Of a stretch of 64,000 bases of DNA, positions 23,542-45,705 are shown piece by piece; the first letter of the stretch is position 1, and each line of letters opens with the position of its first letter. The notes beneath the pieces are model-generated. The model saw only the letters and a list, made by a program, of their open reading frames with translations. It was not told where the DNA came from and ran no database searches. Position numbers and translations under genes: made by a program. This DNA comes from a virus: the IMG/VR virus record IMGVR_UViG_3300048113_001121, positions 134,835-198,834 of that record; one strand, given 5' to 3'.

Positions 23542-24345
23542 TTAGGACTTTAATTCTTGAATTTTAATTGTTTGAAAAATATAGTTCATAACCTTTCTCT
23601 TAGCTATAGATAAAATAGAACCTTCTAACGGAAATTTTTCTTCATACCTAACCCTAAAAATAGGATATGAATCTTCTATCTGTTTTAAAAACTTTTCTGA
23701 TTTTTTTTCATTGAAAATAATAGCTTTACTTCTAATTAAATTAATTAGACTTTTTTTATCGGTTACGTCTATCACGTCACCTTTATAAATTAAATCTACT
23801 TTACATTTATTTTCATTAGTTGTTTTAGTGTAGGTATTAATTCTATATTGATAAACATGTAATAACTCATCATACACAATATAAAAAAACCCTATACCTG
23901 GTTTAGTATTTGTTTTTTTAAGGTCATTAAAGACAATTCGTATTGAAACATTATCATATAGTAATGTCCATATAGACTTACCTATTAAAAATAAATCCGT
24001 TAATCTACTCTGAGAAAACTTTATAATCTTTGATATTTCTTCTTTAGTTTCTTTACTATGTCTTAAATTATTATACACCAAGTCGTCTAATAATATTTCA
24101 TCATCAATATCGTCTGGTTCCCTATTAAGTGTAATATATCTAGAACGGTCCTTAATTGAACCAACGTTAGCTAAATGTAACGACAATTCTTGGAAGGATG
24201 GGTATAACTTAAATTCATCAAAGTCCTTATCAACTTTGGTAATATAGTCCATTAGAACATATTGTTTATGCTCTAAATCTATAGGTTCTTGTAAAATCCA
24301 ATTGGTATCTAATCTCATATTCTCTTTAGTCTTCCTTTTTCCCAA
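23542..24345 (-). CDS. hypothetical protein
   Basis: WI...IDLEHKQYVL..Y, KLYP..EL..H pattern. Confidence 0.6.
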   Translation of the reverse strand: MGKRKTKENMRLDTNWILQEPIDLEHKQYVLMDYITKVDKDFDEFKLYPSFQELSLHLANVGSIKDRSRYITLNREPDDIDDEILLDDLVYNNLRHSKETKEEISKIIKFSQSRLTDLFLIGKSIWTLLYDNVSIRIVFNDLKKTNTKPGIGFFYIVYDELLHVYQYRINTYTKTTNENKCKVDLIYKGDVIDVTDKKSLINLIRSKAIIFNEKKSEKFLKQIEDSYPIFRVRYEEKFPLEGSILSIAKRKVMNYIFQTIKIQELKS

Positions 24346-25745
24346 ACACTGTGGTTGGGCCCAAGCCTGTACCTAAAATAAGGCGAAGTATTGGCTCTGT
24401 AAAGACTAACGAGTCCAGCATCTTTCATTGAACTGAACATTGTTGAGAGATATCCTGAAAATACTACGTCTTCAGGGTCTTTTTCTAAGACATTAATTAA
24501 GAAATCTCTCTTACTGGCTGGTTCCCCTTCATTTGTTTTTTGAGTTATATAATTTAAAAATTTAATGTAAGCATTATCAGGATTTCTACTTTCAAAACGG
24601 TAATTTGAATGTGAGTTTACAGGGTTCCAAAACTTAAAACCTTCTTGATTACCCACACTTAACTCTTCATGTAATTCTTCAATAAAGAAATTAAATATAT
24701 CTCTAATAACTTTATAATTAGTATGTATAGTATTTTGACTTAATAAATGTGCTAAATCATATGGGTCCGATTTAGACTCAAGATATTCTACCATTTCATA
24801 TAGAGGTCTCCTATCATAAACATAATTTGGAGTACTGTTTCTTAATTCCCTAAATTCTATTTCCTCATCGTTATCACTTACTTTAATCATAATACGTTTT
24901 TCACCATACCAACCGACTACAAGTGGTCTCGTACCTTTATCATCACCAATTATATTAACTAACTTATCGTATAAAACATATTTTCTAATTTTACTAAAAT
25001 TAAACTTATTTTCTCTAATAAGTTTAATTAACATAATCTCTAAACTTTTAGATTCATCAACTTTATGATTTTCTTCAATATCTTTTTCAATCGAATTGAA
25101 AGCTGAATTTGTTTTTAAAAAACCTAACAGATTAGAATTAAAATTATCTTTAGCATCAAAAAGTGAGTACCTATCCTCAGCTACATTATAATGAATGGCG
25201 ATTTTATAATAATCATTATCTTTATTTAAATTTTTAAATATAAAATAATACAAAGGACCTCTATCATTATAGGCTCTAAATGCGTTACCACCAGATGTGG
25301 CTGACGTACACCATTTGGTACCCTGACCATAATAACATGATGATTTTTGAGTAAGTGGTTTAACTATTAAAACTTCAGAGTCCTCATATATCTTTGAGGT
25401 GCCCGATTCTACTTTAGTTTTTTCTTCACTTTTTGTGTCACCGTAAACTTCTAACGCATCGATAAGGTCATGAAGGTTTTTATATTGATTAATATCTTTG
25501 TATTGTAAGTTTTTCCTTACTCTATCAAATTTTTCAATCCAATTAATTACACTATCTAAAGAAATAATTGTATTACCAAAGTCATCAAAATTTCTTTTAA
25601 GTACCCAATTTACATATTTATAATTTGTTTTCTTATTGAATTCATGGTCTAAGAACTCCTCTATTGTTTTGCGTAACTCAGGGTTCTCATCAAAACGATT
25701 GAGTATATCTTCTCTTCTACCTTCTATTAAATTTAATAACTTCAT
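24315..25745 (-). CDS. putative head/ejected protein with CxYG-x-TxWC domain (paralog 1)
   Basis: MKLLNLIEG leader; KDINQYK; KIYEDSEVLIVKP..KSSCYYGQGTKWCTSA. Confidence 0.6.
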   Translation of the reverse strand: MKLLNLIEGRREDILNRFDENPELRKTIEEFLDHEFNKKTNYKYVNWVLKRNFDDFGNTIISLDSVINWIEKFDRVRKNLQYKDINQYKNLHDLIDALEVYGDTKSEEKTKVESGTSKIYEDSEVLIVKPLTQKSSCYYGQGTKWCTSATSGGNAFRAYNDRGPLYYFIFKNLNKDNDYYKIAIHYNVAEDRYSLFDAKDNFNSNLLGFLKTNSAFNSIEKDIEENHKVDESKSLEIMLIKLIRENKFNFSKIRKYVLYDKLVNIIGDDKGTRPLVVGWYGEKRIMIKVSDNDEEIEFRELRNSTPNYVYDRRPLYEMVEYLESKSDPYDLAHLLSQNTIHTNYKVIRDIFNFFIEELHEELSVGNQEGFKFWNPVNSHSNYRFESRNPDNAYIKFLNYITQKTNEGEPASKRDFLINVLEKDPEDVVFSGYLSTMFSSMKDAGLVSLYRANTSPYFRYRLGPNHSVWEKGRLKRI

Positions 25746-27364
25746 TATTCTGTTCTAAAAACGTGAAACCAAGTATCACCTATCATTACTTCATTATCTA
25801 ACCCATCGTAACTACTAAGAGAATTACCCACACCATCGCTATCAATTGCTGACTCAAATAACGCATCTTTATCGACATAGTCACTTATATCTAAACCATA
25901 ATCGGTCATACTAGCCATCATATCATACATGACATCATTAACTCTACTATTTACCATATCTTCAATTTGTTCCTCTGTCGGTTCACCTTCAGGGTCAGAT
26001 TCAATATATGTTATTTCATCATCTATTTCATTCCATCTATCTTCAGCTAATTCTACCTCATCTTCATTATATACGTCATCTACATTTCTAGTTATCTCAT
26101 CTAACTCTTCTGCCTCTTCTTTTAATTTGGCTACTTGAGATTCTTGTTCGTCTGATAGTGGTAATTCGTCTGTATCAAAATATGATTCATAATTATTATT
26201 TACATCATCTTCAAACATATCATAAAAATAATCTCTAACTTCCTGCTCATCAATATGACTTTCAATAAACGAGCTACTCCATCCGTCAGCCCCTTGGTCA
26301 TCCCATAGTCCTTCCATATATTCTTTAGCCGCTTGCCATACTTCATCCCACGTACCAACAGCAAAGGTTATTCCAGTATCATCATCACCTACCCATTCAA
26401 ATGTTGGTAAATCATAATGATTATACTGTGACGGGATTAAATCATATATAGACTCACCTTCTTCTTCTAAAACAGATACGCCGTACTCATCAACCATAAC
26501 TTCAAATACCGCATTAGCCTCCAGCGCTTGTTGGTCAGGTTCGTTTTCTAAATTCCATGAATCCTCTTCTTTTCTTTCATCCGCATCAGCCCTTAACTGA
26601 GCAATTCTACGTCTTTCAGCCACTCTTCTTAATCTTTCTCTTTCAAGTCTAGCCGCCTCTTTATCTTTAAAGATATTAATCTCTCTTTGGTAGTTAGTAT
26701 TAATGTATTTATCAATCGCGTTTTGAATTTCATCATATTCTGGAGTACCTAATATCCACCCATCTTTAAAAGATTTATCAGGTGCATCATAGAATGTTTT
26801 ATCTCCATCATATTTTTGTAATAAAGCCACTTTATAATATTTGTCATTACTTTTTGCTTTTTTATCTAAGATATAGAAAAGTTTACCATCTACATTGTAG
26901 TTATCGAAATGTGAAGAACCATTCATAGAGGCAGTACACCACTTAGTACCAGCACCATAATAACAACTCGCCTTATGTGTTTGAGGAGTTACAACCGTAA
27001 ATCGGTCATCTTCATAAACAACATCAGCACCATCAACAGATTTAACTGTACGTCTAACTTTATTCTCATGATTATTAATAGCAGTTATTATCTCATCTAA
27101 AGTTTTAAATTGATTAATATCTTTTTGTTGTAGAGCTTGTTGGTACTTAATAAATTTCTCAACTACTTTTTCAGCTTTACTTAAATTCTCATCAAAATTT
27201 TCTGTAGGTATAACTTTACCTAAAAATGTAAGGAATTTTTGATTAGGGGCTAATTGTCTAGATAGGGTAAAAACTTTTTTAAGTTGTTCGTCAGAAAACT
27301 TGTCTCTAAACATTCTTAAAAAATCATCCTTCCTACTTTCTAATAAAACTTGACTAAGATTCAT
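25745..27364 (-). CDS. putative head/ejected protein with CxYG-x-TxWC domain (paralog 2), acidic C-terminal half
   Basis: MNLSQVLLES leader; KDINQFK; VVYEDDRFTVVTP..KASCYYGAGTKWCTAS; TATTTAT upstream. Confidence 0.6.
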   Translation of the reverse strand: MNLSQVLLESRKDDFLRMFRDKFSDEQLKKVFTLSRQLAPNQKFLTFLGKVIPTENFDENLSKAEKVVEKFIKYQQALQQKDINQFKTLDEIITAINNHENKVRRTVKSVDGADVVYEDDRFTVVTPQTHKASCYYGAGTKWCTASMNGSSHFDNYNVDGKLFYILDKKAKSNDKYYKVALLQKYDGDKTFYDAPDKSFKDGWILGTPEYDEIQNAIDKYINTNYQREINIFKDKEAARLERERLRRVAERRRIAQLRADADERKEEDSWNLENEPDQQALEANAVFEVMVDEYGVSVLEEEGESIYDLIPSQYNHYDLPTFEWVGDDDTGITFAVGTWDEVWQAAKEYMEGLWDDQGADGWSSSFIESHIDEQEVRDYFYDMFEDDVNNNYESYFDTDELPLSDEQESQVAKLKEEAEELDEITRNVDDVYNEDEVELAEDRWNEIDDEITYIESDPEGEPTEEQIEDMVNSRVNDVMYDMMASMTDYGLDISDYVDKDALFESAIDSDGVGNSLSSYDGLDNEVMIGDTWFHVFRTE

Positions 27365-27676: not shown

Positions 27677-28732
27677 ATGAAAGAAAAAATTATCAATATA
27701 CTATCGGGAGGTTCAGGTGAGGTTGAAGACTTTATCAACCGTTATCTCAATGGAGATAAGGATAGTTTTTTTGATTTGTTAGAAAGGTTTGGGTTACTTC
27801 AAAACTCCGACACATACGAAAGTGTTATTGAAATGTTTCCAATGACTTATCTAAGAAAGAGTTATATTGATGACCGTAAAAAAACTATCGATAACATTGT
27901 TTCCACTTATAGTGATATAACTAAGAAAGGTGATAAATATTTTTTAACTCTTGGTGAAAGGTCAGACTTAAGTATTTTTTTTAAATCAGATGACGGTAAT
28001 CGTGAAATGTCATCATCGGAAATGGTTAAAAATATTTTAGGTGAAGATGATTGGTTCGAACCATTTAGCGATGTTACTCAAAATTTGTATACCGATGTTA
28101 TTGAAGAGTTAAATGAAAAAAATAAATTCTTACTTGCCAAATCAATATCTGAAGAATTATCAGGAACTCAAATTTCACCCGAAACTGAGTTATTAGAAAA
28201 TATGGCTAAAGACCAAGGTCACCCCGATTATGTTGATGTTAAAGACCCTATGTTAGTAATGGATATTTTAGAAGAAGATGAAACATCTACTAAAGTTTTA
28301 TTAGATGAAGCTTCTGAAGTTTCAAGTAATTTATATTCACTTCACCATAACTCATATAATACAGCATATACCGATGAAAAGTATAATGAAATAATGAGTG
28401 AAGTTAGAAGTTTATTGGAGATAGATAATAGTGGTGATTGGGAATCTAAGACCATAAAGAATAGTAAAGGTGAGGAGAAAACTATATATAACTACATCAT
28501 TGAAGTTACCAAATTCATACCTTTTTTATTTAGTTCAATTTTTAATGATGACTATCAATTAGATGATTATAGAAATGCATTTGACTATTATGGTGACTTT
28601 GAAGACCTCACTAAAGAAATGATTACTGAGGAAGTAATTGAAGGTGCATCAATGAGTAGAAGTTATTATGATTATGCCGACCATACTTTAGTTAAAAAGT
28701 ATTTAAATGATATGATTATTGATTACGTTTAA
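27677..28732 (+). CDS. acidic hypothetical protein
   Basis: 351-aa ORF; TATTTAT at 27654-27660. Confidence 0.65.
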   Translation: MKEKIINILSGGSGEVEDFINRYLNGDKDSFFDLLERFGLLQNSDTYESVIEMFPMTYLRKSYIDDRKKTIDNIVSTYSDITKKGDKYFLTLGERSDLSIFFKSDDGNREMSSSEMVKNILGEDDWFEPFSDVTQNLYTDVIEELNEKNKFLLAKSISEELSGTQISPETELLENMAKDQGHPDYVDVKDPMLVMDILEEDETSTKVLLDEASEVSSNLYSLHHNSYNTAYTDEKYNEIMSEVRSLLEIDNSGDWESKTIKNSKGEEKTIYNYIIEVTKFIPFLFSSIFNDDYQLDDYRNAFDYYGDFEDLTKEMITEEVIEGASMSRSYYDYADHTLVKKYLNDMIIDYV

Positions 28733-31700
28733 ACTTTCCCTCTAACTCAGTTAGTTCACCATCTTTATCCTTTAAGATTAATTCTTGTTCCTTAATTGCT
28801 TCAAATAATACTGAGATTAATTGTTCATAACTAACTTTATAACCTCTTTCTTCTGAACCACCAATTAATTCAGGTAAAACTTCTTTTACCTCTTGAGCAA
28901 TAACTCCAATATCTTTTCTACCACCATCAAGTAAAACGGTACCATCGAGATTTTCTTCTTTCCATATAAATTCAACACCACGTAGATTTAAAACTTTCTG
29001 TAAAGGTGTATCAATTTTTTTAATATTTTCCTTTAATCTTTTATCGGAAAAAGAACCCGCCGGACCTTGGGCTCCTGCCGGTCCTTGAGTTCCTTGAATA
29101 CCTTGTGAGCCTTGACTTGAAGTTCGTCCTTTTAAACCTTTTTCTCCGGTTCTACCTTTAATCCCTTTAAGTCCTTTTGGTCCTTTTTGTCCTGCTGGCC
29201 CTGTTGGTCCGCCAGAACCTGTAGGTCCTTTTGGACCTTGCGGACCTTGTGGTCCATCTTTACCAAGTACACCTTTTGGACCTTTAGGTCCTTTATAACC
29301 TTTATGTCCTTTTAGGCCTTTTGGTCCTTTAGCTCCTTTAGGACCTTTAGGTCCTTTAAGACCTTTTTCAGTACTTGCCGGTCCTTGTGGTCCTGTATCA
29401 CCTACGTCTCCTGACCCTTGAGATAATCTTGGTCCTTTTAAACCTTGGGGTCCTTGCGGTCCTCTAGGACCTTTGTAACCTTTTGGACCTTTAAATCCTT
29501 TTTCCCCTGTATTCCCCTTATGACCTTTAGGTCCTTTGGGTCCTTGTCCACCTTTGAACCCTTTAGGTCCTTTTGGTCCTTGACTACCTACATTTCCTCT
29601 TGGTCCCTTTTCTGAACTTGCCGGACCTTCTTTACCTGTCGGACCTGTCGCCCCTCCAGAGGCTTTGGGTCCTTGTGGACCTGTAGGCCCTTGCGGTCCT
29701 CGTGGTCCTTGGGGTCCTCGTGGTCCTGGCTCATTACCATCAGCACCTACAGCCCCTTTAGGTCCTTGTGGACCTTGTCCAGGTTGATAACCTGTAGGTC
29801 CTTGTGGACCTTGTCCACCTCTCGGACCTTTAATACCTTTATTACCTTTATCCGTACTTGCCGGACCTTGTGGTCCTGTAGGTCCATTAAGACCTTGACT
29901 AGCTTTAGGTCCTTGTGGTCCTTGTGAACCCTGAGGCCCTCTTGGACCCTTATTACCTTCTGGTCCCCTAACAGAACTTGCCGGTCCTTGTGGACCTTGT
30001 TGACCCGTTGCCGCTCTCGGCCCTTTGTAACCCTTAATACCTTTATCTGATGTTTGTGATTTAAGACCACCTTTTAAACCTTTATTACCTTTATCAGTAC
30101 TTGATGGACCTGTCGGTCCTTGTGGACCTGTATCACCACCAGAACCTTGTGTTGCCTTAGGCCCTTGTGGTCCTAAATCACCTTTAATACCTTTATTACC
30201 TTGTGGACCTCTATCTGTACTTGCCGGACCTTGTGGTCCTGTAGGTCCATTAGTACCTTGACTAGCTTTAGAACCTTGTGGTCCTTGCGAGCCTTGGCTT
30301 TGTCGTGGACCTATAGCTCCTTTTGGTCCTGCAGTATTACCTGCCGGTCCTTTGGGTCCTGTTGGTCCTTGAATACCTGTACCTGACGCACTACCTTGGG
30401 GACCTCGGTTACCATCATTACCTTGTGGTCCTTTTGGTCCTATTGGACCTCTATCAGTACTTGCAGGTCCTTTTGGTCCTGTAGGACCTGTTGCCCCATT
30501 AGATGCTTTAGGTCCTTGTGACCCTTGTGTACCTCTCCCTGTCTGTAAACCTTTTGGTCCTTTATAACCTTTTAAACCTTTATCTGTTGAAGATGGTCCC
30601 TTATCACCTTGTGTGGTATTTTTAGTACCTTTTGGTCCTGTAGGACCGGTGGGGCCATTTGGTCCTTTAGTACCTTTATAACCTTTTTGCCCTTTAATAC
30701 CTTTATCAGTACTTGATGGACCTGTCGGTCCTTGTCCACCGGTAGTTCCCTTTGGTCCTGTCGGACCTTGAGGTCCTTGTCCACCTTGATTACCTCTAGG
30801 ACCTTTTGGTCCTTGTGTTCCTTTATCAGTATTAGTTGGACCTGTTGGTCCTTGTGGACCTTTAAGTCCTTTATCGGCATTATTAGGTCCTGTTGGTCCG
30901 TTGGGTCCTGTTGGTCCCGTTATACTATTTCCAATAGTTCCTCTCGGTCCATCTGTACCTTTCGGTCCTTTGATACCTTTGATACCTTTATTACCTTTAT
31001 TTGTGGACGTACCACTCGGACCTTTTTCAGCTGTTGGACCTGTTGGTCCTTGTGTTCCTCTCGCCCCTTTAGGTGAAGTACCAATTGTACCTCTCGGTCC
31101 TTGAAAACCTTTAGGTCCCTTATCACCTGTAGGTCCTTGTAGTCCTTTATCTGTATTTGTTGGTCCAATATCTCCACCAACGGCAACATCACCTATAAGT
31201 CCCTTTTCATTATTACCTTGAGGTCCCTGAGGCCCTTGTGGTCCTCTTAACCCTTTAGTACCTTCTGGTCCTTTTAAACCTTTGTCAGAACTTGCAGGTC
31301 CAATTGGTCCTTGTGGACCTGTAGGTCCTTGTGACCCTGAACTAGTTGATGATTGTGGTCCGATTAATCCTTTAATACCTTTGATACCAATTAATCCCTT
31401 TAACCCTTTCGTACCTTTATCAGTACTTGCCGGTCCTTGAGGTCCGTTATCTCCACCAGAACCTGTAGGTCCTTTTAGTGAATCACCCTGCAACCCTCTA
31501 TCTCCATCAAATCCTTTTGGTCCTGTCGGTCCTTGTGGACCTATTGGTCCTTTAACGGCTGCTGGTCCACCTGGACCTGTTGGACCTTGTGGTCCGATAA
31601 ATCCTTTTTCACCTTGTGTACCTATTACACCTCTACCTTGTTTAGGTCCTTTAATACCCTTGATACCTTTAATACCCTTGATACCTTTATCACCTTTGTC

Positions 31701-32687
31701 TGTAGATTGTGGACCTCTTGGTCCTAAATCACCATCAGGTCCTTGTACACCTACAATACCATCAGGACCTTGCGGACCTTGTGGTCCTGTAAGACCTTTT
31801 ATACCTTTGTTACCAATAGGTCCTTTATCAGCGGTAGGTCCTGTTGGTCCTTGTGGTCCATTATCCCCATCTGTCGACCTAACACCTTTATCACCTTGTG
31901 GACCTTGATTTCCAAGAATACCTTTTTGTCCCTTTACACCTTTTATACCTTTTGGTCCTTTTTGACCTTTATCTGATGATGTCGGCCCTTTTAAACCTGT
32001 TGGCCCTTGAGGTGAATCACCACCTATACTACCTTTTGGTCCTTGTTCAGGTTTTAGACCCTTATTTCCTTTAACACCTTTAAGACCTGTCGGACCTTTA
32101 GTTCCTTTATCTGAAGATGTTAACCCTTTTAGACCTGTTGGTCCTTTAAGACCTTTTGTTGAGTCTGACGGCTTTAACCCTTTTAACCCTTTAGGTCCAA
32201 CAATACCTTTCTCACCTTGTGGTCCTCGGTTACCTTTATCCCCTTTGACTGAAAGCTCACCTTTGATTCCTTTTTCTCCGTCAGAACCAATACCACCTTT
32301 GATACCGAAGTCACCTTTATCACCTGTAGGTCCAACGATTCCCTGAATACCTTTATTACCTTTTAAACCTTTATCACCGTCAACACCTTGTAGTCCTTTG
32401 AGACCTTTTTGACCTTTAAGACCTTCTGTCTGCCCAACCCAATGACCTCCAGAGTCAACTACCATCATACTACCAACATAAAGTTCACTATTAATAACAT
32501 TAACCTCACCTGGTAATGATAATGGAGTAGCACTATCAGATATTTTAAAAATATTTGTAGAAGACTTAAATACTAAATCACCTGTAGTATCTATTTCAAT
32601 AGTATAATCAACACCTGTACCACTAAAAATTATATGTGGATTGGTGTTTAATGTACTTCCCGTAGGATATATTATAATATTAGCCAT
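28716..32687 (-). CDS. giant collagen-like fibre protein C with C-terminal peptidase S74 chaperone
   Basis: ~85-aa N-domain, ~1,120 aa Gly-X-Y, then [33 protein letters not shown]. Confidence 0.92.
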
Positions 32688-35600
32688 TAATCTATTTGTG
32701 TTCTTAACCAGTTTATTTGTTCCTCTATGTCTTCAATAAATACTTGTTGACTTTTAATCGCTTCAATAATTAATGCATTTAATTTATAATACTTAATAGC
32801 TAAATAACCATCATCCCTTCTATAAACTACTTCAGGATATAATAAGTTTATTTCTTGTGCTATCATACCAATTGAATGTAATTTTTGTCTTTCCTTTAAG
32901 AAGTCATATCCTGTATAATTTTCATTCCAATCATATTCCGTAACATTAATTTTTAGTAACTTATTCAAAGAGTCACTTAATGTTTTAGTACCATGTTTAA
33001 GTCTACTATCAGAAGCCCTACAATCGGCACAAGCATATATTTCACAAGCATTTACTACTGATTTAGGTGGTGGTGTAATTACCCATGAAAATAAAACTCC
33101 ACCTAAGTTGACCGCGTCCCATATAGTTATAAAATCTGTAGATAGATTTCTCATACATGGTAATCCCTCAAATTCTCTACAATCTTTACAATCTGGGTCA
33201 GTATAGAGGATATCACCCTGAGCTAATGGTTGTATATCACCTTTATATACAGTCAAATTTACCTTATCTCCACATGGGCTACTTCTACCATTACAATACG
33301 CACAATCTTCACCTGCTCTTACCGCAATGTCATGAGCGAAACAAAACGCACCACCTGTGGGTCCTTTTATACCTTTATTACCTTTTAAACCTTTTGGTCC
33401 TGTTGGTCCAGATAACGCTGCTGGTCCATCTGACCCTTGTGGGCCTCTTGGTCCTTGTGGACCTTGAAGACCTTGTGGACCACTACCACCTTGTCGACCT
33501 TTATACCCTTTAGGTCCTTTATAACCTTTATAACCTTTTGGTCCTGTTGGTCCTTGTGGTCCGGGATTTCCAGCGATACCTGTTTGACCCTTATCTGTAG
33601 AAGCATTACCTCTCGGACCTTGTGGTCCTCTTGGTCCTGTTTTAGATGATTGTGACCCTTTCGACCCTTGAGGTCCTCTTGGGCCCTTGTAACCTTTAAT
33701 TCCTTTATGTCCTTTTAAACCTTTTGGTCCTAATGGTCCTATTGGTCCTGTCGGTCCTTGAGATGTGCTTTGGGTACCTATTAGTCCTCTACCACCTTGT
33801 GGACCTCTACCACCTTGTGGACCTTTTGGTCCTTTTGGTCCTTTAGTTGTATTAGTTGTTCCTTGTGGACCACGAGTACCTTTATCACTATTTGCTGGCC
33901 CTGTAGGTCCTAACTGACCCTTTAAACCTTTCTCACCTGTAATACCTTTTAGTCCTTTGAAAGCGGCTGGACCTCCAATACCTACAGCACCTTTTGGTCC
34001 TTTTGAAGTACTTTGAGGACCTGTCGGTCCTTGTGGACCTTTTGGTCCTTTTAGTCCTGTTGGACCTGTATCACCATTTTGAGCGGTCGGTCCATTTGGC
34101 CCTCTTTCTCCTTTATAACCTTTAACTGAACTACCAGTTCCTTGTGGTCCTAAAGGTCCTTTATACCCTTTATGTCCTTTTAACCCTTTTAACCCTTTGA
34201 ATGCTGCGGGTCCACCTGCACCTGTTGGACCTGTTGGACCACTTTGTGTTCCTTGATTTCCTGTCGGTCCTTTAGGTCCTATTAAACCTTTTGTACCTTT
34301 TAATCCTTTGAATGCTGTCGGTCCTGTCTGTCCTTGAGGACCTCGTGGTCCTTTATCACCAGCAACACCTGTTGTCGCTCCTTGTGGTCCTAAAGGTCCC
34401 TTATATCCTTTAGGTCCTTTAGTCCCTTTTTTACCTTTAATACCTTTAAATGCTGCCGGACCTGTTGGACCTTGTGGTCCTCCATCGGCAGTTGATGGTC
34501 CTTGTGGTCCCTTAGGTCCTTTATACCCTTTATGTCCTTTTAACCCTTTTAACCCTTTGAATGCTGTCGGTCCATTATCCCCTGTTGGACCTTGAGGTCC
34601 ACCATCTCCTGTCGCTGAACCTATTGGACCTTTTGGTCCATAAGCCCCTTTAATACCTTTTTGACCTTTAAGTCCTTTATAGGCTGTTGGTCCATTATCT
34701 CCTCCAGGTCCTGTAGGTCCTTGAGATGTACTTTGTGTTCCTTTCGGCCCTTTAGGTCCTTTAGGTCCTTTATAACCTTTTATTCCTTTTAGTCCTTTAA
34801 ATGCTGCCGGACCTGTTGGACCTTGTGGTCCTTGTTCTCCACCAGTACCTGTTGTTGTTCCTCTTCCACCCTGTGGTCCTCTTGGTCCCTTAATACCTAT
34901 TAATCCTTTACTACCTTTTACTCCATCAGTTGCTCTTAATCCTTTGAGACCTTTTTGACCCTTAAGACCTTTAACTGTTGAAGTAGTACCTCTACTACCA
35001 TCTGGACCTTTATAACCTTTTTGACCTTTTATACCTTTATCACCATCAGTGGCTCTAAAACCTTTTTGACCTTTAATTCCTTTGTCACCTGCAGATACAC
35101 TTATTAAACCTTTATCACCAGTAACACCTTTTAACCCTTTTAAACCTTTAGGTCCTTTATTACCTTGTGGTCCTTTATAACCTTTTTGACCTTTGATACC
35201 TTTATAACCCTTTTGCCCTTTGATACTTTCAGGACCTTGTGGGCCCGCATCACCTTGACTGGCTTTAAGTCCTTTATTTCCTTGAGGCCCTATTAAACCT
35301 TTTAACCCTTTAAAACCTTTATTACCTTTTAATCCTTTAAGTCCTTTATTACCTTGGTCCGCCACTGGTCCCGTTGGTCCTTGTGGTCCTCCATCACCTT
35401 GACTCGCGATTAAACCTTTAGGTCCTTTAGGTCCCTTAACACCTTTCTTACCTTTTAATCCTTTATAACCTTTATTACCTTTATCTCCCTGTGGTCCTCT
35501 TTGACCCTTTTCCCCTGTAGGTCCTAACTCATTACCTTGGCTTGTTGGCCCTTGAGGTCCTTTTGTCCCATCAATACCCTTTTTACCTTTTAACCCTTTT

Positions 35601-38600
35601 AATCCTTTAAGTCCTTTAAGACCTTTATCCGCTCCCTCACCATCTTGTGAAACTGGACCTTGAGCTCCTTGGTCAGCAATTGCTCCTTGTGGTCCTTGTG
35701 GACCAAGTAATCCTTTTCGACCTTTTAAACCTTTGAGACCTTTATCACCTTTATTACCGGTCAGACCTTTATCGGATTGAGGACCTGTTGGTCCCGTATC
35801 TCCTTGGCTAGCTATTAGACCTTTGACACCTTTAATACCTTTAAGACCTTTATTACCTCTTCTACCTTTAATACCTTTTTCACCTTTATCGGTAGAAGTT
35901 TCACCTCTACCACCTGTAGGTCCTTGGTCACCATCAGGACCTATTTGACCTTTGGGTGAAACACCTATGGAACCATCAGGTCCTTTAATACCTTTTGGTC
36001 CAACAACTCCAACTTCACCTTTTGGACCTTTTAAATCACCAACAGGTCCATCAACACCGATAGGTCCCTTTTCACCTACCACACCTTTTGTTCCACTATC
36101 GGTATCAGGTCCTTTAGCCCCTTTTAAACCTTTTAATCCTTTTAATCCTTTTAATCCTTTAGTTCCTTTATCGTCACCAGCGATTCCTTTATTACCTTCG
36201 TCACCAGTTTCACCTTGTTGTCTTAGAAAAGACGTTAAAGCGTTTGTAACAACGGATTCCGTAAAATTACTAACAGTAGGGTCAACATCAAATCCAAAAT
36301 GTTTTAGTCCTGAACCATTTTTAAAACTACTTTCTAAATTTGTATAACAAGTTTCAGACGTTAAACCTGAATATACATTTGTTCTTGTTAATGCACTTAA
36401 ATTTAAGTTTTCAGGACCAACTGAAGTTATGTTATCACCATATCTGTTTAAAAACTCATTACTAGTGATGGTACTACCCTCAATTGCTGCTACTGCATGT
36501 TGAACAAACGCATAAGTTGAAGTACCTCTAAGTGGGTTTACAACTGGATAAACTAAACCTTGAGCATTACCCCCTCTATTGGATATAATATCTTCATATA
36601 CTTGAACATAAGAACAGTAATCGTGTAAATACCTATTCGTATATTCATCACCCGCATTATTATTCCAATAATTACCATTTAATTCAAATGGTTTATTATA
36701 CAAATCACTCTTAGTTGGATTACTATTAGTCCCACCTACCTGTCCATGATATAAACCAACAAGACCATCTGACTCATCAGCAACAATAATTACCAAATAG
36801 TTAGTATTATCACCACCAAATGAACCTTGTCCCGATGTTTCCGTATTATTTAAATCACTATGGTCAAAAGGTACACCCTGAGATATTGTTTCAGCGGCAC
36901 CTGTATCTAAATTAACACCTCTGTTAATTCTTCTATATATCGTTTCACCATCATTAAATTGTGAGTTTCTTGGTACACAATTACCACCTGAGTTAGACTT
37001 ACAATAATCAGATTGATAAGTTGCATTAGGTACAGCACTATTAAATTCATTAATTTGTGTGTTATCAGATAAGGTACCTCCGGATAGTGAACCAAGATAT
37101 GGGTAAGATGCCCACCATAACCAGTTTTCACCATTATGAGAATTTTTACCAATTACCCCCTCGTATAGTTTATTAATATCACCATCACCATTTACCGTTT
37201 GGAACCAATCTCTAACACTCTGCGAAGCTTCTTTAGCTTTATCACTTGGCATTGATGTCGCGTCATAGAAAACATAAACATCTACATTTGCAGTAATCCC
37301 AATTGGTCCTTGAGGTCCTTTTACACCTACCTCACCTTTTGGACCAATTGGTCCTTTATTAGTACCTGTGGGTCCTTGGTTACCTTTACTCGCCGATAAT
37401 CCTGTAGGACCTTTCAGTGAGTCACCAATTAATCCCTTTATACCTTTATTACCTTTGAAACCTTTAAACCCTTGTGGTCCTACTGGACCTTTTAAAGATG
37501 TCGGACCTATTGGTCCTGTATTACCCTGAGGACCTATTTGACCTTTGACACCTGTTGGCCCTATAGGTCCTTGGTTAGCCTTTTCTCCTTTGATACCTTT
37601 TAACCCCTTAGTACCTTGGTCACCCTGTGGACCTTGTTCAGTAGAAGTTATACCTTTTAAACCTTTTTTACCTTTTAAACCTTTTTCTCCATCAACCGCT
37701 CTACTACCCTTAAGACCTGTAGGTCCATTTGGACCTTGTGTACCAGTCGGTCCAATCATATTCATAGGGTAACCCTTCCACTTACCTAAGTCATCAATTA
37801 GTTCGTTACTATTCTCTTTCTTTACTGAAACAGACGGCATAAACTTTATATTATCTAACTCTAAGTTTGAAGTAATTTTAAAATCATTACCTAAGTGGGT
37901 GTTGAAATTTAATTCACCACTATTATAGTCAATATTAATCATAGTACTATTAGTACCTGAAAAACTGATTGTCCCACCCGTTGGATTTATTTTAATGTCT
38001 CTACCCATTTAAAATTTTTGATTTTAATATGTTAATTCTATCTGTTATATTTTCAATACGTGTGTTTTGTTCTTGTATAGAACCTATACCAATCGCAACT
38101 AATTTACCGTACTCAAGTTTTAGATAACCACTCTCACTATTAAATACAACTTCAGGTATAACTTTTTCAATATCTTGAGCGATAAATCCAAAATCTTCAC
38201 CATAATTATTTTCAAATTTAGTTGACCCACCTTTCCATGTAAACTTTACACCGTCAATTAATTTTAACTTACTTAGATTACCTTTTAAAGATTTAATATT
38301 ATTTTTTAATCTTTTATCTGATGCTGGACCTTGTAGTCCCTGTGGTCCTTGTAAACCTCTTGGTCCTTTTGGACCTTTAGGTCCTTGTCCACCAGTTGGC
38401 CCTGTCGCACCACCACTACCAGCCGGTCCTTGTGGTCCTGTCGGTCCCTGTGGTCCACTTGTTCCTTGTCCTCCTCTTGGTCCCGTACTACCAATTGGCC
38501 CTCTTAGTCCTTTTACCCCCTTTACTGTTGATGTTGGTCCTTTTGGTCCTATCGGACCTTTATCCGTACTTGCCGGACCTTGTGGTCCTGTTGGACCTGT

Positions 38601-41600
38601 TGGTCCAAGGTCATTACCAATTGGCCCTGTTGGTCCTTTTACTGTTGAAGTATTACCTTGCGGACCTATTGGTCCTTGACTACCTTGTTTTTCAATAGGG
38701 CCTTTTAGTCCTTTAAGACCCTTTAACCCTTTTTCAGTACCTGCTGGTCCTTGTGGTCCCGTTGGTCCATTTGAACCTCCACCACCTGTTGGCCCTGTTG
38801 GACCACCTGACCCATTTGACCCACCTGGACCTGTTGGTCCATTTGAACCTCTTGGTCCTTTATAACCTTTTATACCTTTATCTGTAGATTGTAGACCTCT
38901 TGGTCCTTGTGAGCCTTGTGGTCCTCTATTTCCTTTAGGTCCTTTACTACCTTGTAGACCTTTAAGACCTTTATCTGTACCTATAAAACCTTTTTGACCT
39001 TTATCTGTAGATTGAGAACCTTGTGGTCCCTTAATACCTTTACGTCCCTTTGGCCCTTTTCGCCCTTTTAATCCTTTAACACCCTGTAGACCCCTTTCTG
39101 AACTTGACGGTCCTATTGGTCCTTTTACTGTTGAATCATTTCCTCTTGACCCTTGAGGTCCTTGATTACCTCTATTACCCTTCGGCCCTTTTGGCCCTTT
39201 AAGTCCCTTTAAACCTTTTTCAGTACTTGGCTGTCCTTTTAATCCTTTTACTGTTGAATCATTTCCTCTTGGTCCTTGCGGTCCTCGTATACCTTTATCA
39301 CCTTTTATTCCTGAATCACCAACTGCACCTTTTTGACCTTTAGTATTATTAGTTGGACCTTTTGGTCCTTGTGTAGTTGAAGCTGAACCTCTTGGTCCTT
39401 GCGGTCCTTGCGACCCCTGATTTCCTCGATTACCTTTAACTCCTTTTAAACCTTTTGGACCTTTAGTTGTATTATCTATCCCTTTAAACCCTTTAACCGT
39501 TGAATTGGCTCCTCTAACACCTTGTGGTCCTTGGTTACCTCTATTACCCTTTGGCCCTTTTAAACCTTTTAGTCCTTTTAGCCCTTTTTCAGAATTATTT
39601 GGTCCTTTCGCCCCTTTTACTATTGATGTCGCACCTTGTGCCCCTCTATTACCAACAGAACCTCTTGGCCCTTTAGGTCCTTTATAACCTTTCTGTCCTT
39701 TAATACCTTTAGTAGTACTGGTTATACCTTTATACCCCTTTACGGTTGATGTTGCTCCTTGTGGTCCTCTTGGACCTTGACTACCTCTATTACCTTTAAC
39801 TCCTTTTAAACCCTTTAACCCTTTATGACCTTTAGTGTCATTGGTTGGACCTTGTGGACCCGTTGGTCCTGCAGCGGCTTGGTCCCCCTGTGGTCCCTGT
39901 GGACCTTTTTGACCTTTATCAGTAGATTGTTTTCCTTGTTGTCCTCTATTACCAACCGGACCTCTATCGGTACTTGCCGGTCCTGTTGGTCCTTGTGCGG
40001 CTTGACTCCCTCTACTTCCTTGTGGACCTTTTTGACCCTTATCAGTAGATTGTGAACCTCTATCGCCTTGAGGACCCTTAAGTCCTTTTTCCTCAGACTG
40101 TGGACCTCTATTACCTTTGTCGGATGATACACCAATATTACCTCTGTTACCTGTTGGCCCTTGCGGTCCTTTACCTCCTCTTACACCATCACTTCCTTGT
40201 GGTCCACGTCCACCAGTTAAACCCTTTAAACCTTTTTGTCCTTTTATACCTTTATCAGTTGAAGTTGGACCTTGTGGTCCTTGGTCACCCTGTGGTCCCT
40301 GTTCCCCTACAGTTCCTGTACTTGATTGTGGACCTTGTAACCCAATAGGTCCTTTAGGTCCTTCAATACCCTTTAAACCTTTAGGTCCCTTAAGACCCTT
40401 ATCGGTTGAAGTAGCACCTCGATTACCTTTATCACCTATAGACGCCTGATTACCTGTTGGACCTTGTGGACCTTGTGAATTTTTAGGTCCTTTTAAACCT
40501 TTATTACCCTTAAGACCTTTAAGTCCTTTGAATGGTGTTGGTCCAACTACACCCTTTATACCTTTGTCACCTGTCGAGGCTATACTACCTTGATTACCAA
40601 TCGCACCTTGAGGTCCTTGTGGTCCTCTATTACCTTTTAGACCTTTAATACCTTTTAGACCTTTCTGACCTTTATCATCACCTTTAGGTCCTGTTGGTCC
40701 AGTAGGTCCTTGTGATGCTTGTGTACCGATACCTCCTTGAGTACCTCTATTAGGTTTTAAACCTTTTAAACCCTTTACACCTTTTAACCCTTTTTGACCC
40801 TTAATACCCTTATCTGTTGAAGTGATTCCTTGTAATCCTTGTGGTCCTTGTGGTCCTTGTGTAGTTGTACTGGCTTGTGGTCCTTTAATACCTTTCGGAC
40901 CTTTTGTTCCTTGAAGACCTTTAAGTCCCTTGTCCCCTTTATAACCTATTGGTCCTTGAGCCCCCGTTGGACCTTGTTGACCATTATCACCACTTACAGC
41001 AATAAGTCCTTTATGTCCCTTCACACCCTTAAGACCTTTCACACCCTTAAGACCTTTAACACCTATCAGCCCTTTTATACCTTTTTCTCCTGTTGGACCT
41101 TTAGGTCCTATGGGTCCTTGTGAACCAACACTTGCTATTGGTCCTTGTAATCCCTGAGTACCTTGAATACCTTTCGGACCTTTTGTTCCTTGAAGACCTT
41201 TAAGTCCTTTAAGTCCTTTATCCGCAGATGAACCCGATTGTGAAACTGGTCCTTGTGGTCCTAAAGAACCTTTTTTACCTTTTTCACCTTCAATACCTTT
41301 GACACCTTTAGGTCCTTGTGGTCCTTTTAAACCCTTATTACCTTTATCACCAACAATACCTTTATCTGAATTTGAACCTTGTAAACCTACAGGTCCTTGA
41401 CTGGCTTTATCTCCAATAGCACCTTTAATACCCTCTTCACCCTGAACTCCACGATTACCTTTTTCACCTTTCGGACCCACTTCAGTGGATGTTGGACCTT
41501 GTGGTCCTTTTAAACCTTTATCACCATCATTTTGGAACGCCCAACTAGTACCTATAGTACCAAATCTACCTTTGAGACCTTTTAACCCTTTTCTACCTTT

Positions 41601-41720
41601 ATCACCTTGTGGTCCATCAACACTTGTACCTCTATTAGCTGTTGGCCCTACAGGTCCCTGTACACCTTTTAAACCTTTATCACCGTCAACACCATGATTA
41701 CCTTTTAGTCCTTGAGTACT
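29050..41720. repeat. Gly-X-Y codon repeat region (GGT/GGA-CCT-rich)
   Basis: continuous 9-nt periodic repeats (ggtcct/ggacct/ccttt on + strand) across three genes, interrupted by the globular domains. Confidence 0.9.
32687..38008 (-). CDS. giant collagen-like fibre protein B with vWA-like insertion, Cys-rich domain and S74 chaperone
   Basis: Gly-X-Y split by a ~350-aa globular insert (VYVFYDATS...LVIIVADES); Cys-rich segment; [23 protein letters not shown]. Confidence 0.9.
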
Positions 41721-41978
41721 ACCTTTCCAACCACCAGTGTCCGTAATAGAACCAACACTATTAAATGCTACGTCATTACCTAAGATAATAGAACCTTTAA
41801 CATTTAACCTATCTTCATCAATAACAACTAAAGCATCACCATGTGTTGCACCTGAAAAAGTTAGACGACCGTCATTGTGAACATTTAATGAAATAGTATC
41901 ACCATTAGTGTTCTCAAAAATAATATAAGGAAGTGTCGTACCTGTTGGTTGTGGTACTATTATAATGTTTTTAGCCAT
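38001..41978 (-). CDS. giant collagen-like fibre protein A with C-terminal peptidase S74 chaperone
   Basis: ~85-aa N-domain, ~1,130 aa Gly-[35 protein letters not shown]; TATTTAT at 42009-42015. Confidence 0.92.
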
Positions 41979-42117
41979 TGGTGCAATTCAAAGGGTTTAT
42001 CTTATTTTATAAATACTCACAAAAAAGTTTATTATTCATTTTAAATACCGATTTGTATTTATCATTCAAGTTTTTTTTTATATAATACATTTAATAAATA
42101 TTTAAAAGTCATTTAAT

Positions 42118-42984
42118 ATGCCGAACTACATAGTACAAACTTATTCAAGAGGTGAAGACTTAACTAATCTATTAGTTAATAAGGTAATTCTTGAGATAGA
42201 AAAAGAAACTAAAAATCATAAAACAAACATACAAGTAATAAACAACAGTAACTTTATAGTGGTGAGAGGAAATACCACACATAAAACACCAATTAACTTA
42301 TCTAAATTATTTATATCATATTATAAAACACTCTTTAGTAGTGATATAAATTTAAATGTTGTTGACCTTATCGAATATGACACACCTGTTGAGGAAGAAT
42401 CGATTTATTTTAAAAAAACATATACTAAAGATGAGTTATCCGATTCAATAAAAAAACAAACCTATTTAGATACGTTAAATAATAAGCACTACAGGTTTAC
42501 CGCTTGTACTGATTTAAACATTGTATTTACTGCAAATGATTTTAATGAAGATATCATAAGTGATGTGTTAAATAATTTTGAGGATTATAAAATTTTAAAA
42601 AATAATTCTTCTGTTGAAACTTTTAAATCATCACAACATTACGGTAAAAACTTAAAAACATCTAAACTTTTTGAGTCGTACTTTAACTACATTGTTTATA
42701 ATATATTTGAGAGAGGATTATGTCGTGACTTAACCGTTGAATTTTTTACAGACGCTAAGTTTGACACAATTAATTGGGAGAATATATCACTTAAAGTTAC
42801 CTCAGACAGTTTAATGACAAGTAATGAGTGGTTAGAATCTTTAATTTTAGATTTATTTACATTTAAACCTGATGAAATAATTAAGAGGTGGGATTTGAAT
42901 GAGTATGATTTCTCAGAAGAAATCATAAGTCATTTTAATATATGGAAAGTAAAAGATAAAGTAGGTGAAATGATATTATTTTAA
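42118..42984 (+). CDS. degenerate S-adenosylmethionine synthetase (MetK)-like protein
   Basis: [14 protein letters not shown]..S...Y..[19 protein letters not shown] and F.[12 protein letters not shown] echo MetK N- and C-domains; catalytic GHPDK/GAGDQG/GGGAFSGKD absent. Confidence 0.5.
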   Translation: [288 protein letters not shown]

Positions 42985-43260
42985 ATATCGTTTCACCTTA
43001 ACCAAAGCTTCGTCTAAATCTTCAAAGTCATCATCAGGTACCAGTAATTTTATGTTAGATGTTTTGTCACCTTTTTCAACAGTCAATAACATAAACGCAG
43101 GAATAAACTCACTATCCGTAGCCTGAACAAATAAGTCGTATTCATTTTTAAAGACATCTATATCTCTTGGTGTAAACTCAATTTTAGAGTCCTTTAACAT
43201 TTTTTTCATATCATCACAGTGACGACAACCTTTCATGGTGTAAACTATAACTTTTTTCAT
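42976..43260 (-). CDS. glutaredoxin-like protein
   Basis: VIVYTMKGCRHC (CxxC), FIPAF cis-Pro loop. Confidence 0.8.
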   Translation of the reverse strand: MKKVIVYTMKGCRHCDDMKKMLKDSKIEFTPRDIDVFKNEYDLFVQATDSEFIPAFMLLTVEKGDKTSNIKLLVPDDDFEDLDEALVKVKRYLK

Positions 43261-45014
43261 TTTAATATCATTCTATTATTAATAACTATTGCGTCAACAT
43301 CACTATTATTAAATAAATCAATAGCGTCCTCTATTGTTTCAACTATTGGTTGACCGTTTATATTTAAAGAAGTGTTAAGTACCATAGGAATATTGGTATG
43401 TTTTTCAACTTCTCTTATCAACTCATAATAAGTTGGATTATCTTTTTGATTAACTGTTTGAACTCTAGCAGTACCGTCAACATGAGTAATGGATGGTACT
43501 AAGTCAGGTTTTTTAACAGGACATGTATATAACATAAAAGGTGATGGAACATCAATATCAAAATACTCCTGACAGTTTTCTTCAGTAACCGATGGTGCAA
43601 ATGGTCTAAACCATTCTCTAAATTTAATTCTAGCGTTTAAGATATCTTTCATATTAGGGTCAACAGGATTAGCTATAAATGAACGATTACCTAACGCTCT
43701 TGGTCCAAATTCTGAACCTCCTTGAAACCACGCAATAATTTTAGATTCACTAATCATTTTAGAGATTACCTTCACATCATATTTCTCACCAATAGTTTCA
43801 TTAGTATATTTTTTACCCGTATAAACAATTTCTGAATTACTATACTCTTTATTATCATTACCTAAAATATGATGATAAGAATAAAGTGTAGAACCAACAG
43901 ATAACCCATCATCACCTGAAGCGGGATATATGTAAATGTTTTTAAATTTACTTTCTTTAAGTATTTTATAATTAACATTACAGTTTAAAAATGAACCACC
44001 CGCCAAACATAAATTACCACCATTATAACCTTTTGTTAATTCGTATAATTCATCAACAAACATCAGAACTATTTTTTCAAAAATATATTGTACTGAAGAT
44101 GCTAAGTCCATACCCTTTACCGTATCAACTTCTGAATTAGTTAGTATTGTTCTATTACCACTAAACTTAGGTTTTTCTTTATATAATACATTATCTTTTT
44201 CTATCCAACCCCTATAGGTATGTGGGGGTAATCCCGATAATTTAGAACCCATTATATAATAAAACTCTAAATCACCTGAACTTAATTTACCGTTATTATT
44301 AATTATAAAATCCTTCCATTGATTAATAGCTATTTCATTGGGTTTACCAAATGATGATAATCCCATCAACGTTCCAGCTTTAGTTAATCCAGGACCTATC
44401 GATAACCAATCAGTCATTTTGTCATAAAAAACACCAACTAAAGTATTAGGTGCCCCTAAAATTTCTAATCTATCATTACTACCGTAATGGTAAGACCCAC
44501 TTTTTTCAGGATATTCACCCGAAGCGTCTAATGTCATTATGACAGATTTTTTAAATGGTGATGTGTAAAAAGATGATGCAGCATGTGCAGTTTGATGATT
44601 TACTAAGTAACCTTTTTTTACATAGTGACCCTCTAAAACCACATTAATATTTATGAAAGGGAATGACTCCCTATCTGTAGTTGGTGTCACTAACCAATTA
44701 TCATTAAATATATCATACCCATGTTTGGTTAGAGGTGGGAGTTCACCTTTAAATGGACTATCTTCATCTTTATCTAAATAAATTTCTATAAATCCGTTTG
44801 AGTTCCATTTATCGTACCCCCCAACACTTATATAGTCAACTTCATCAAATGAAATATTAGAATCACTTAAAACATAATCTATCGCTACCCAATCAATGTA
44901 AGAAGTTTTTTTAAGTCTATAAATTCTTTCACATGATATAGATGAAATAACTTTACCATCTTTTAAAAGTGAAACTGAAGCATCATGACCTAAATTTAAC
45001 CCTAATATAATCAT
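43257..45014 (-). CDS. O-carbamoyltransferase (NodU/CmcH/TobZ family)
   Basis: LGHDASV, HQTAHAAS, GTLMGL, LAGGSFLN, GDDG, FGPRALGNRS, FREWFRPFAP, HVDGTARVQ, LNTSLN. Confidence 0.95.
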   Translation of the reverse strand: MIILGLNLGHDASVSLLKDGKVISSISCERIYRLKKTSYIDWVAIDYVLSDSNISFDEVDYISVGGYDKWNSNGFIEIYLDKDEDSPFKGELPPLTKHGYDIFNDNWLVTPTTDRESFPFININVVLEGHYVKKGYLVNHQTAHAASSFYTSPFKKSVIMTLDASGEYPEKSGSYHYGSNDRLEILGAPNTLVGVFYDKMTDWLSIGPGLTKAGTLMGLSSFGKPNEIAINQWKDFIINNNGKLSSGDLEFYYIMGSKLSGLPPHTYRGWIEKDNVLYKEKPKFSGNRTILTNSEVDTVKGMDLASSVQYIFEKIVLMFVDELYELTKGYNGGNLCLAGGSFLNCNVNYKILKESKFKNIYIYPASGDDGLSVGSTLYSYHHILGNDNKEYSNSEIVYTGKKYTNETIGEKYDVKVISKMISESKIIAWFQGGSEFGPRALGNRSFIANPVDPNMKDILNARIKFREWFRPFAPSVTEENCQEYFDIDVPSPFMLYTCPVKKPDLVPSITHVDGTARVQTVNQKDNPTYYELIREVEKHTNIPMVLNTSLNINGQPIVETIEDAIDLFNNSDVDAIVINNRMILK

Positions 45015-45336: not shown

Positions 45337-45705
45337 TTATATTGTTTTTAAATTTTTATAACTTCTTAAAAAGAAAATCATACCGTCTGATGATTCTTCT
45401 TTACAAATCGTATAGAACTTATAAGTATTTTCGTCCTTCCTTTTAATGAAATATAAGTAATTAAAAGTTTCCGAAAACCTTATAAGTCCTTCCTTTAATA
45501 TTACTTGACCACCATTAAATAATTTGTGTGACCAAATAATCTCATTTTTTTCTAACATTCGGTTTAAAGCCTCATGAGTGTAAAACTCAGTTTCAATAAC
45601 TGTTGATAAAGTATGAGCACCTTTACCAATTAGATTATTAACGTGAGTTAATACTTCTTTAGGTAAAAGATACTCTTCTTTATTATTTTGGTTATTATTT
45701 TCCAT
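45337..45705 (-). CDS. hypothetical protein
   Basis: operon-packed ORF. Confidence 0.55.
   Translation of the reverse strand: MENNNQNNKEEYLLPKEVLTHVNNLIGKGAHTLSTVIETEFYTHEALNRMLEKNEIIWSHKLFNGGQVILKEGLIRFSETFNYLYFIKRKDENTYKFYTICKEESSDGMIFFLRSYKNLKTI

Follow-up and report, generated by a model that had tools for sequence, protein, structure and literature searches.

Do three tandem collagen genes with rods of matched length encode the chains of one mixed triple helix, or three separate fibres that happen to be equally long? This question is raised by the last 64 kb of the 198.8-kb IMG/VR virus record IMGVR_UViG_3300048113_001121 (positions 134,835 to 198,834; hereafter the window), in which three adjacent minus-strand genes, here called A, B and C, each encode a collagen rod between an N-terminal domain (N-domain) and a C-terminal Peptidase_S74 chaperone (S74). 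A preliminary description of this DNA had kept both a 1:1:1 heterotrimer and three equally long fibres as options, with a lean towards homotrimers. In the present analysis the lean was supported by the positions of the interruptions in the rods, while the heterotrimer is kept alive as a rival because relatives retain all three genes with co-varying lengths (Table 1). With moderate confidence, A, B and C are regarded as three homotrimeric virion fibres which are kept at an equal number of ~12-nm units by a common ruler.

Domain architecture of A, B and C

The three genes were confirmed as exact open reading frames (ORFs; coordinates in Table 2) that are coupled by an overlap of 8 nt between A and B (ATGGGTAG, 38001-38008) and of 1 nt between B and C (TAATG, 32687). 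The related N-domains of ~85 aa and the S74 chaperone at each C-terminus, both reported in the preliminary description, were also recovered. The N-domains are mutually 35-38% identical and end in D..G.W.G, of which D80, G82, W84 and G86 are invariant. All three proteins match Pfam Collagen (PF01391; E = 1.5e-97, 7.4e-105 and 6.1e-96 for A, B and C) and Peptidase_S74 (PF13884; 53, 38.1 and 62.1 bits at a curated cut-off of 22). These three S74 domains, the only copies in the 199-kb record, share 36-44% identity with each other, and S-D-x-R-L-K (S6, D7, R9, L10 and K11) is invariant in their alignment. B alone has a domain between collagen and S74, which separates the two by 111 residues. In A and C the collagen runs directly into the S74 serine, and the mature rods would therefore be headless if S74 self-cleaves as in known fibres.

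Matched lengths, as claimed earlier, were found for the rods but not for the whole proteins, since B is 450 aa longer. The collagen spans comprise 1130 residues in A, 1110 in B (359-aa insert excluded) and 1125 in C. These spans agree with the former estimate of ~1,110-1,135 Gly-X-Y residues per chain; strict Gly-X-Y is limited to 300-317 triplets, or ~900-950 residues per chain, and the other residues belong to interruptions, 41-45 in each chain, many of which are four-residue S-T-D-K-like motifs. Register-shifting breaks number 25 in A, 22 in B and 24 in C, and the description of the breaks in B as purely in-register did not hold. At the collagen rise of 0.286 nm per residue, the predicted triple-helical rods would be about 320 nm long.

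Relatives and age of the triplication

In marine and freshwater samples, N-domain profiles identified relatives on 15 viral and 50 metagenome contigs. Wherever the flanking DNA suffices, all three genes are present in conserved synteny; the marine 'long' clade has the order A-B-C, and the freshwater 'short' clade mostly the order A-C-B. Across both clades the N-domains cluster by A, B and C type (3 label changes vs 16 when shuffled), and the triplication is therefore older than the split of the clades; a single B group of N-domains is weakly supported. A search of 1.84 billion representatives recovered 55 N-domain proteins at E ≤ 1e-3, a small family whose cluster names are uninformative. Among 50,697 phage records, no cultured relative was found by DNA match or by a match to the C N-domain, and the only matches to cultured-phage records are weak ones of a neighbouring gene (see below). 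The pattern that the preliminary description had named as contrary to its proposal, namely relatives with one or two of the genes and unrelated lengths, was not encountered: all three genes are present in every relative with sufficient flanking DNA, and their lengths co-vary tightly.

Rod lengths are locked within each phage

Rod length was expressed in triplet-equivalents: to the number of triplets, floor(L/3) was added for every interruption L residues long, and the 359-aa insert of B in the window was left out. The rods match within each phage across ~25 relatives, although they differ nearly four-fold between phages (98 to 366; Table 1), and the counts are locked with or without an inserted cassette. 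When B and C lengths were shuffled among phages within a clade, 0 of 20,000 trials matched as well, in a test that ignores phylogeny.

A repeat unit of ~14 triplets is common to all three chains (41 residues in A, 40 in B and 40-41 in C of the window; 42, 41 and 43 residues in L013), so lengths change in steps of ~12 nm and the lock amounts to an equal number of units. Compared with the window, units have been lost in parallel from all three genes in L010 (~1), L008 and L070 (2 each) and L082 (4), in each gene within its own repeat array. The repeat period is 7 or 14 triplets (21-22 or 40-43 residues) in all three chains of the window and of L013-L019, which equals one or two repeats of the 7/2 collagen helix. 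Each chain keeps its own style of break across phages, with one additional residue every 7 or 14 triplets in C and two every 13 in B; in the short clade, chain C has one extra residue after each 7th or 14th triplet and chain A is almost without breaks.

Mismatched trios, several of them off by at least one unit, were found in the freshwater clade only. In every such trio the deviant chain is the shorter one, and the genes contain exact repeats of up to 153 nt vs 38-53 nt in the window genes. These trios may be assembly collapses or real variants.

Table 1. Rod lengths (triplet-equivalents) of the three chains in the window and in related loci
Locus	A	B	C	Remark
Window	366	362	365	
Window and six near relatives	365-366	360-364	365-366	
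L010	354	350	351	
L008	342	340	339	
L070	340	338	339	
L082	314	314	313	
L064	233	231	236	
L019	167	166	167	
L018	157	156	157	
L015	153	152	154	
L013	142	134	141	
L014	98	98	98	
L041	100	119	141	mismatched
L046	134	98	133	mismatched
L038	142	121	141	mismatched
L050	152	158	139	mismatched
L060	173	171	159	mismatched
L017	157	161	170	mismatched

Interruptions are placed independently in the three chains

Known heterotrimeric collagens, such as C1q and type IV collagen, have their interruptions at common axial levels. The chains of the window share equal helix length and joint encoding with such collagens (366, 362 and 365 triplet-equivalents, with the lock in relatives), but neither shared break levels nor complementary charges were found. 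Net charge per 100 triplets is +37 in A, +38 in B and +32 in C, all three chains thus being strongly basic.

Interruption positions are statistically independent between the chains. For each pair of window chains, the Gly residues shift phase against each other 33-44 times along the rod, and the longest common register of two chains is 63-78 residues. In triplet-level coordinates, interruptions coincide at zero offset 19, 13 and 14 times for the three pairs, at chance level compared with all-offset means of 14-16. Drift-tolerant matching yielded 27, 25 and 32 matches vs 26.6, 24.5 and 28.5 with segment orders shuffled, whereas the ortholog controls gave 34, 42 and 39 matches vs 21.7, 30.0 and 26.8, a level reached in 0 of 300 shuffles. 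In a hypothetical ABC helix 40-42% of the levels would be perturbed, close to the ~42% calculated for independent breaks from the per-chain rates; its clean runs would have a mean of 2.7-3.1 triplets, and only 9-10% of the levels would lie in runs of at least 6 triplets. The corresponding values for AAA, BBB and CCC helices are 15-19% perturbed levels, runs of 6.6-7.0 triplets and 59-67% of the levels in runs of at least 6 triplets. The preliminary description had argued that differing interruptions favour homotrimers, and the mapping per chain bears it out: the interruptions cannot be aligned and the charges are not complementary, both of which count against a heterotrimer.

N-terminal domain and the extra domains of B

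An AlphaFold2 (AF2) model of the N-domain is all-beta with a predicted local distance difference test score (pLDDT) of 80. No match was found in the PDB, and the best matches in BFVD are weak (E 0.02-0.3, template modelling score 0.4-0.56) and include N-termini of proteins annotated as tail fibre, S74 and collagen proteins. The domain also heads an 824-aa non-collagen fibre in L005, adjoining a gene for a protein of at least 1359 aa that is cut by the contig end and full of GNVGIGT-type repeats. Together, these similarities suggest that the N-domain is a virion anchor, probably on the tail.

For the 359-aa insert of B, no Pfam match was obtained at E ≤ 1, and the PDB sequence search returned nothing useful. 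The AF2 model built with eight orthologs has a pLDDT of 34, and Atlas feature matches to VWA collagens score 0.79 and are rated as a lead only, which leaves a vWA-like reading unconfirmed. The Cys-rich domain of B has one weak zinc-finger match (E 0.08). Relatives are without the insert or carry other cassettes in its place, and interchangeable shaft cassettes of lectin type occur in B or, in freshwater phages, in A. A PA14 cassette (188 aa, 41.8 bits) is located mid-shaft in B of marine relatives and recurs in gene A of the freshwater L050, L052 and L060, with ~52% identity to the marine PA14; a Laminin_G_3 cassette (219 aa, 33 bits) lies mid-shaft in L009. B is probably the adhesin-like fibre of the trio.

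Three fibres or one mixed helix

According to the favoured explanation, A, B and C would be produced in equal amounts from a single translationally coupled operon of a myovirus of ~300 kb. The C-terminal S74 would trimerise, nucleate zipper-like folding of the collagen rod and finally release itself by cleavage at the conserved Ser, in a manner comparable to the loss of the procollagen C-propeptide. The ~85-aa beta-rich N-domain would attach the fibre to the virion, with the baseplate or the tail as the probable site. After maturation, A and C would be bare, strongly basic collagen rods of ~320 nm without a head, and B an adhesin-type fibre with a globular knob ~44 nm from the base and a Cys-rich tip after release of S74. 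Selection would hold the number of units (~40-43 residues, ~12 nm) equal across the three genes, which implies a common ruler; for instance, the fibres may pack side by side in phase with their ~12-nm units, or tail length or another virion dimension may set the number. In the literature, homotrimers are the state given for prokaryotic collagen-like proteins (PMC8968730) and, as the typical case, for S74-capped modular viral fibres (PMC12220804). Two further observations count for homotrimers: the extras are asymmetric, B alone having a domain between collagen and S74, and the mismatched trios would be tolerated by separate fibres. The assignment to the virion is based on the non-collagen fibre of L005 that shares the N-domain, on the virion genes encoded in the record and on a neighbouring protein that resembles a structural protein of phage PA5oct.

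Several points weigh against three separate fibres. Rods of 98-366 triplets agree to within 1-5 triplets in at least nine length classes, and independent gains and losses of units in three genes with different repeats have still left the rods equal. Separate flexible fibres have no obvious need for anything near so close an agreement; a single mixed helix would demand exactly this. Like the three C1q chains, the genes always occur as a complete, coupled set. A common ruler for the unit number is assumed, and what is put forward for it are guesses. The mismatched trios may be assembly artefacts, in view of the shorter deviant chain and the 153-nt repeats. Finally, an ABC helix in the short clade would be no more interrupted than the homotrimers of the window, so that the case against it rests on the long clade and on an assembly mode assumed to be the same throughout the family.

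If A, B and C chains did combine in a 1:1:1 ratio into a single mixed collagen helix, a heterotrimeric S74 cap would select and nucleate the chains, a heterotrimeric N-domain would hold them, extra residues and the domains of B would loop out, and equal triplet numbers would be a structural necessity. Triplet-equivalents indeed agree to ~1% in all trios of the long clade and differ by 0-2 triplets in many of the short clade, the match in triplet count equals or beats that in residue span, and the constant presence of three translationally coupled genes would provide a 1:1:1 ratio. A tip domain is present in a single chain of each trio. The inserted domains are of PA14 and LamG types, which often occur as insertions with adjacent termini and so could loop out of a continuous strand. 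Against such a helix stand the independence of the interruption positions, the 40-42% of disturbed levels with clean runs of ~3 triplets, ~71 single-chain register shifts that would need to bulge out, and the lack of charge complementarity. The collagen of B stops 111 residues before S74 while that of A and C abuts it, and the mismatched trios, if real, add to these objections. Moreover, neither a heterotrimeric S74 nor a heterotrimeric prokaryotic collagen is described (PMC8968730). On this evidence the mixed helix is considered unlikely, but it is the main rival.

Two other explanations were considered, both of them with little prospect. Phage-encoded collagens might be placed on the infected cell or secreted from it rather than form parts of the virion, as the cluster is at least ~100 kb away from the head and tail genes of the contig, lies amid modification enzymes, and bacteria have collagen-like surface proteins (PMC8968730). 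The N-termini of A, B and C show no evident signal peptide or lipobox, however; phage and virus fibres have the same succession of N-anchor, fibre and S74, and neighbours resemble structural proteins of jumbo phages, which makes this explanation very improbable. Least probable of all is that equal lengths were left over from the gene triplication, or from gene conversion between the paralogs, rather than held by selection. The three genes are paralogs, and a short homologous interruption stretch is common to A and B, at shifted positions. Yet the DNA identity of the paralogs is only 65-72%, in scattered off-diagonal patches, by which gene conversion was rejected as the source of equal length, and the clustering of the N-domains by type indicates an old triplication, after which the lengths went from 98 to 366 within chain-specific repeat arrays. 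Three homotrimeric virion fibres with a common ruler therefore remain the preferred explanation.

Lysine-rich rods and a PLOD-type glycosyltransferase

Outside the trio, the window carries a gene for a PLOD/LH3-type glycosyltransferase (Table 2), the product of which is a probable modifier of the Lys-rich rods. Lys occupies 31-47% of the Y positions in the marine clade, which carries the GT_PLOD gene, and 0-7% in four freshwater contigs with Gln or Thr instead. Co-occurrence was compared for the window, L004, L014, L016, L018 and L019; the GT_PLOD gene was not found in the four Lys-poor freshwater contigs, which are only 24-42% complete. In the GT_PLOD protein only the GT_PLOD domain was recognised, and neither this protein nor its 562-aa neighbour has a recognisable lysyl-hydroxylase domain.

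Genomic context

The record is rated 66% complete, which implies a genome size of ~300 kb. Its genes for a tail sheath, a portal and a major head protein identify the virus as a myovirus. A possible tape-measure ORF, truncated at the contig start and downstream of the sheath gene, had no match in the contigs of five relatives, which do not cover this region. GC content is ~30% in the window and 39-45% across A, B and C.

On either side of the trio lies an opposite-strand ORF of unassigned family (288 and 351 aa). The flanking position of both is kept in the two clades, which makes their products candidate assembly or docking partners. The two paralogous proteins encoded at 24315-27364 weakly match a 'structural protein' of the Pseudomonas jumbo phage PA5oct, and also proteins of Salicola phage SCTP-2 and Caulobacter phage CcrBL9. 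A carbamoyltransferase, a glutamine-synthetase-like protein and a glycosyltransferase are encoded near the fibre genes and may be part of a glycan-modification set, and a 792-aa protein has C-terminal PG_binding_1 and GH19-like endolysin domains.

The region upstream of the start of A (41979-42040, minus strand) and the A/B and B/C junctions show no Shine-Dalgarno-like sequence. The motif TATTTATA is located ~30 nt upstream of gene A, but across the window it is no commoner than expected by chance. TATTTATW was rejected as a promoter motif, with 35 copies in the window vs 36 expected by chance, and scans for sigma-70 promoters and terminators performed no better than on shuffled sequence.

Table 2. 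Features of the collagen locus, its surroundings and selected related loci
Feature	Coordinates	Strand	Description	Basis
Gene A	38001-41978	-	1325 aa: N-domain, collagen rod, S74 chaperone	ORF, translation, Pfam Collagen and Peptidase_S74
A N-terminal domain	41715-41978	-	residues 1-88, all-beta, putative virion anchor	alignment, AF2 model, weak BFVD matches
A collagen rod	38322-41711	-	residues 90-1219: 1130 residues, 366 triplet-equivalents, 41-residue repeat unit	
A Peptidase_S74 chaperone	38004-38321	-	Ser1220 of SDKRLK; abuts collagen directly	
Gene B	32687-38008	-	1773 aa: N-domain, collagen, globular insert, collagen, Cys-rich domain, S74	
B N-terminal domain	37754-38008	-	residues 1-85	
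B collagen part 1	37292-37753	-	residues 86-239 (154 residues ahead of the insert); with part 2, 1110 residues, 362 triplet-equivalents, 40-residue unit	
B globular insert	36215-37291	-	residues 240-598, 359 aa, 4 Cys	
B collagen part 2	33347-36214	-	residues 599-1554	
B Cys-rich domain	33014-33346	-	residues 1555-1665 (111 aa), 10 Cys including three CxxC	
B Peptidase_S74 chaperone	32690-33013	-	Ser1666 of SDSRLK	
Gene C	28716-32687	-	1323 aa: N-domain, collagen rod, S74 chaperone	
C N-terminal domain	32424-32687	-	residues 1-88	
C collagen rod	29049-32423	-	residues 89-1213: 1125 residues, 365 triplet-equivalents, ~40-residue unit	
C Peptidase_S74 chaperone	28719-29048	-	Ser1214 of SDKRLK; abuts collagen directly	
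PLOD/LH3-type glycosyltransferase gene	50355-51785	-	outside trio; probable modifier of Lys-rich rods	Pfam GT_PLOD, 247 bits
Flanking ORF	42118-42984	+	288 aa, unassigned family	
Flanking ORF	27677-28732	+	351 aa, unassigned family	
Two paralogous proteins	24315-27364	-	476 and 539 aa	weak matches to phage proteins
NodU/CmcH-type carbamoyltransferase	43257-45014	-		
Glutamine-synthetase-like protein	45705-46841	-		
Glycosyltransferase	22186-23148	-		
Endolysin-like protein	17736-20114	-	792 aa	C-terminal PG_binding_1 and GH19-like domains
Non-collagen fibre	L005:5961-8435		824 aa, headed by N-domain	
Repeat protein adjoining this fibre gene	L005:2-4081		at least 1359 aa, cut by contig end	GNVGIGT-type repeats
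PA14 cassette in B	L071:6591-7154		188 aa, mid-shaft	41.8 bits
Laminin_G_3 cassette	L009:6735-7391		219 aa, mid-shaft	33 bits

Comparison with known systems

The trio resembles the collagen and S74 fibres of polinton-like viruses (PMC12220804) in having a putative N-terminal anchor, a collagen shaft that would be trimeric, and an S74 cap that would cleave itself off, and the motif S-D-x-R-x-K is intact as in known S74 fibres. It differs from known collagen and S74 fibres in that the rods, at ~1100 residues, are as long as animal fibrillar collagen, the collagen of A and C abuts the chaperone without a head, and there are three length-locked paralogs. S74 also caps endosialidase tailspikes and the L-shaped fibre of T5, and its self-removal is established in other proteins. 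The procollagen C-propeptide is likewise a C-terminal trimeriser, which nucleates the folding of a ~1000-residue helix from its C- to its N-terminus before being removed, but it is unrelated in sequence to S74 and needs a separate protease, whereas S74 would remove itself. C1q and type IV collagen, too, have clustered paralogous chains of equal helix length, and here as there a C-terminal domain would choose the chains; unlike in those collagens, the breaks of the trio are independent between chains, the charges are not complementary and there is one tip domain only.

Mimivirus combines collagens with the lysyl hydroxylase and glucosyltransferase L230 (Luther et al. 2011, PMC3243560, cited in PMC12220804). 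Viral collagen with abundant Lys at Y and a PLOD-type enzyme are found in both systems; in the virus studied here only the GT_PLOD domain is recognised, the host is bacterial and the collagens are S74-capped. Tail-fibre proteins of E. coli O157 prophages (PMC3368898) similarly contain collagen-like repeats in trimeric proteins of tail-fibre type; these are short tracts beside tail-fibre repeats, and neither an S74-abutted rod nor a length-locked trio is described.

A 300-nm triple helix with a self-removing chaperone would represent an independent viral solution to collagen folding, and the trio offers natural material on how far a triple helix tolerates dense and regular interruptions. In the marine clade, Lys-rich collagen is paired with a PLOD-type glycosyltransferase in a bacterial virus. 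Three diverged genes hold an equal number of ~12-nm units, from ~7 to ~27 across phages, which points either to a mixed three-chain phage collagen or to a virion ruler that counts units in three separate fibres; the former, if true, would be without precedent outside animals, both as a heterotrimeric collagen and for its heterotrimeric S74 chaperone. Collagen-plus-S74 fibres as such are of an already known kind. New are the rods of animal-collagen length that are joined directly to the chaperone, the conserved trio of paralogs and the unit-exact lock of their lengths over a nearly four-fold range.

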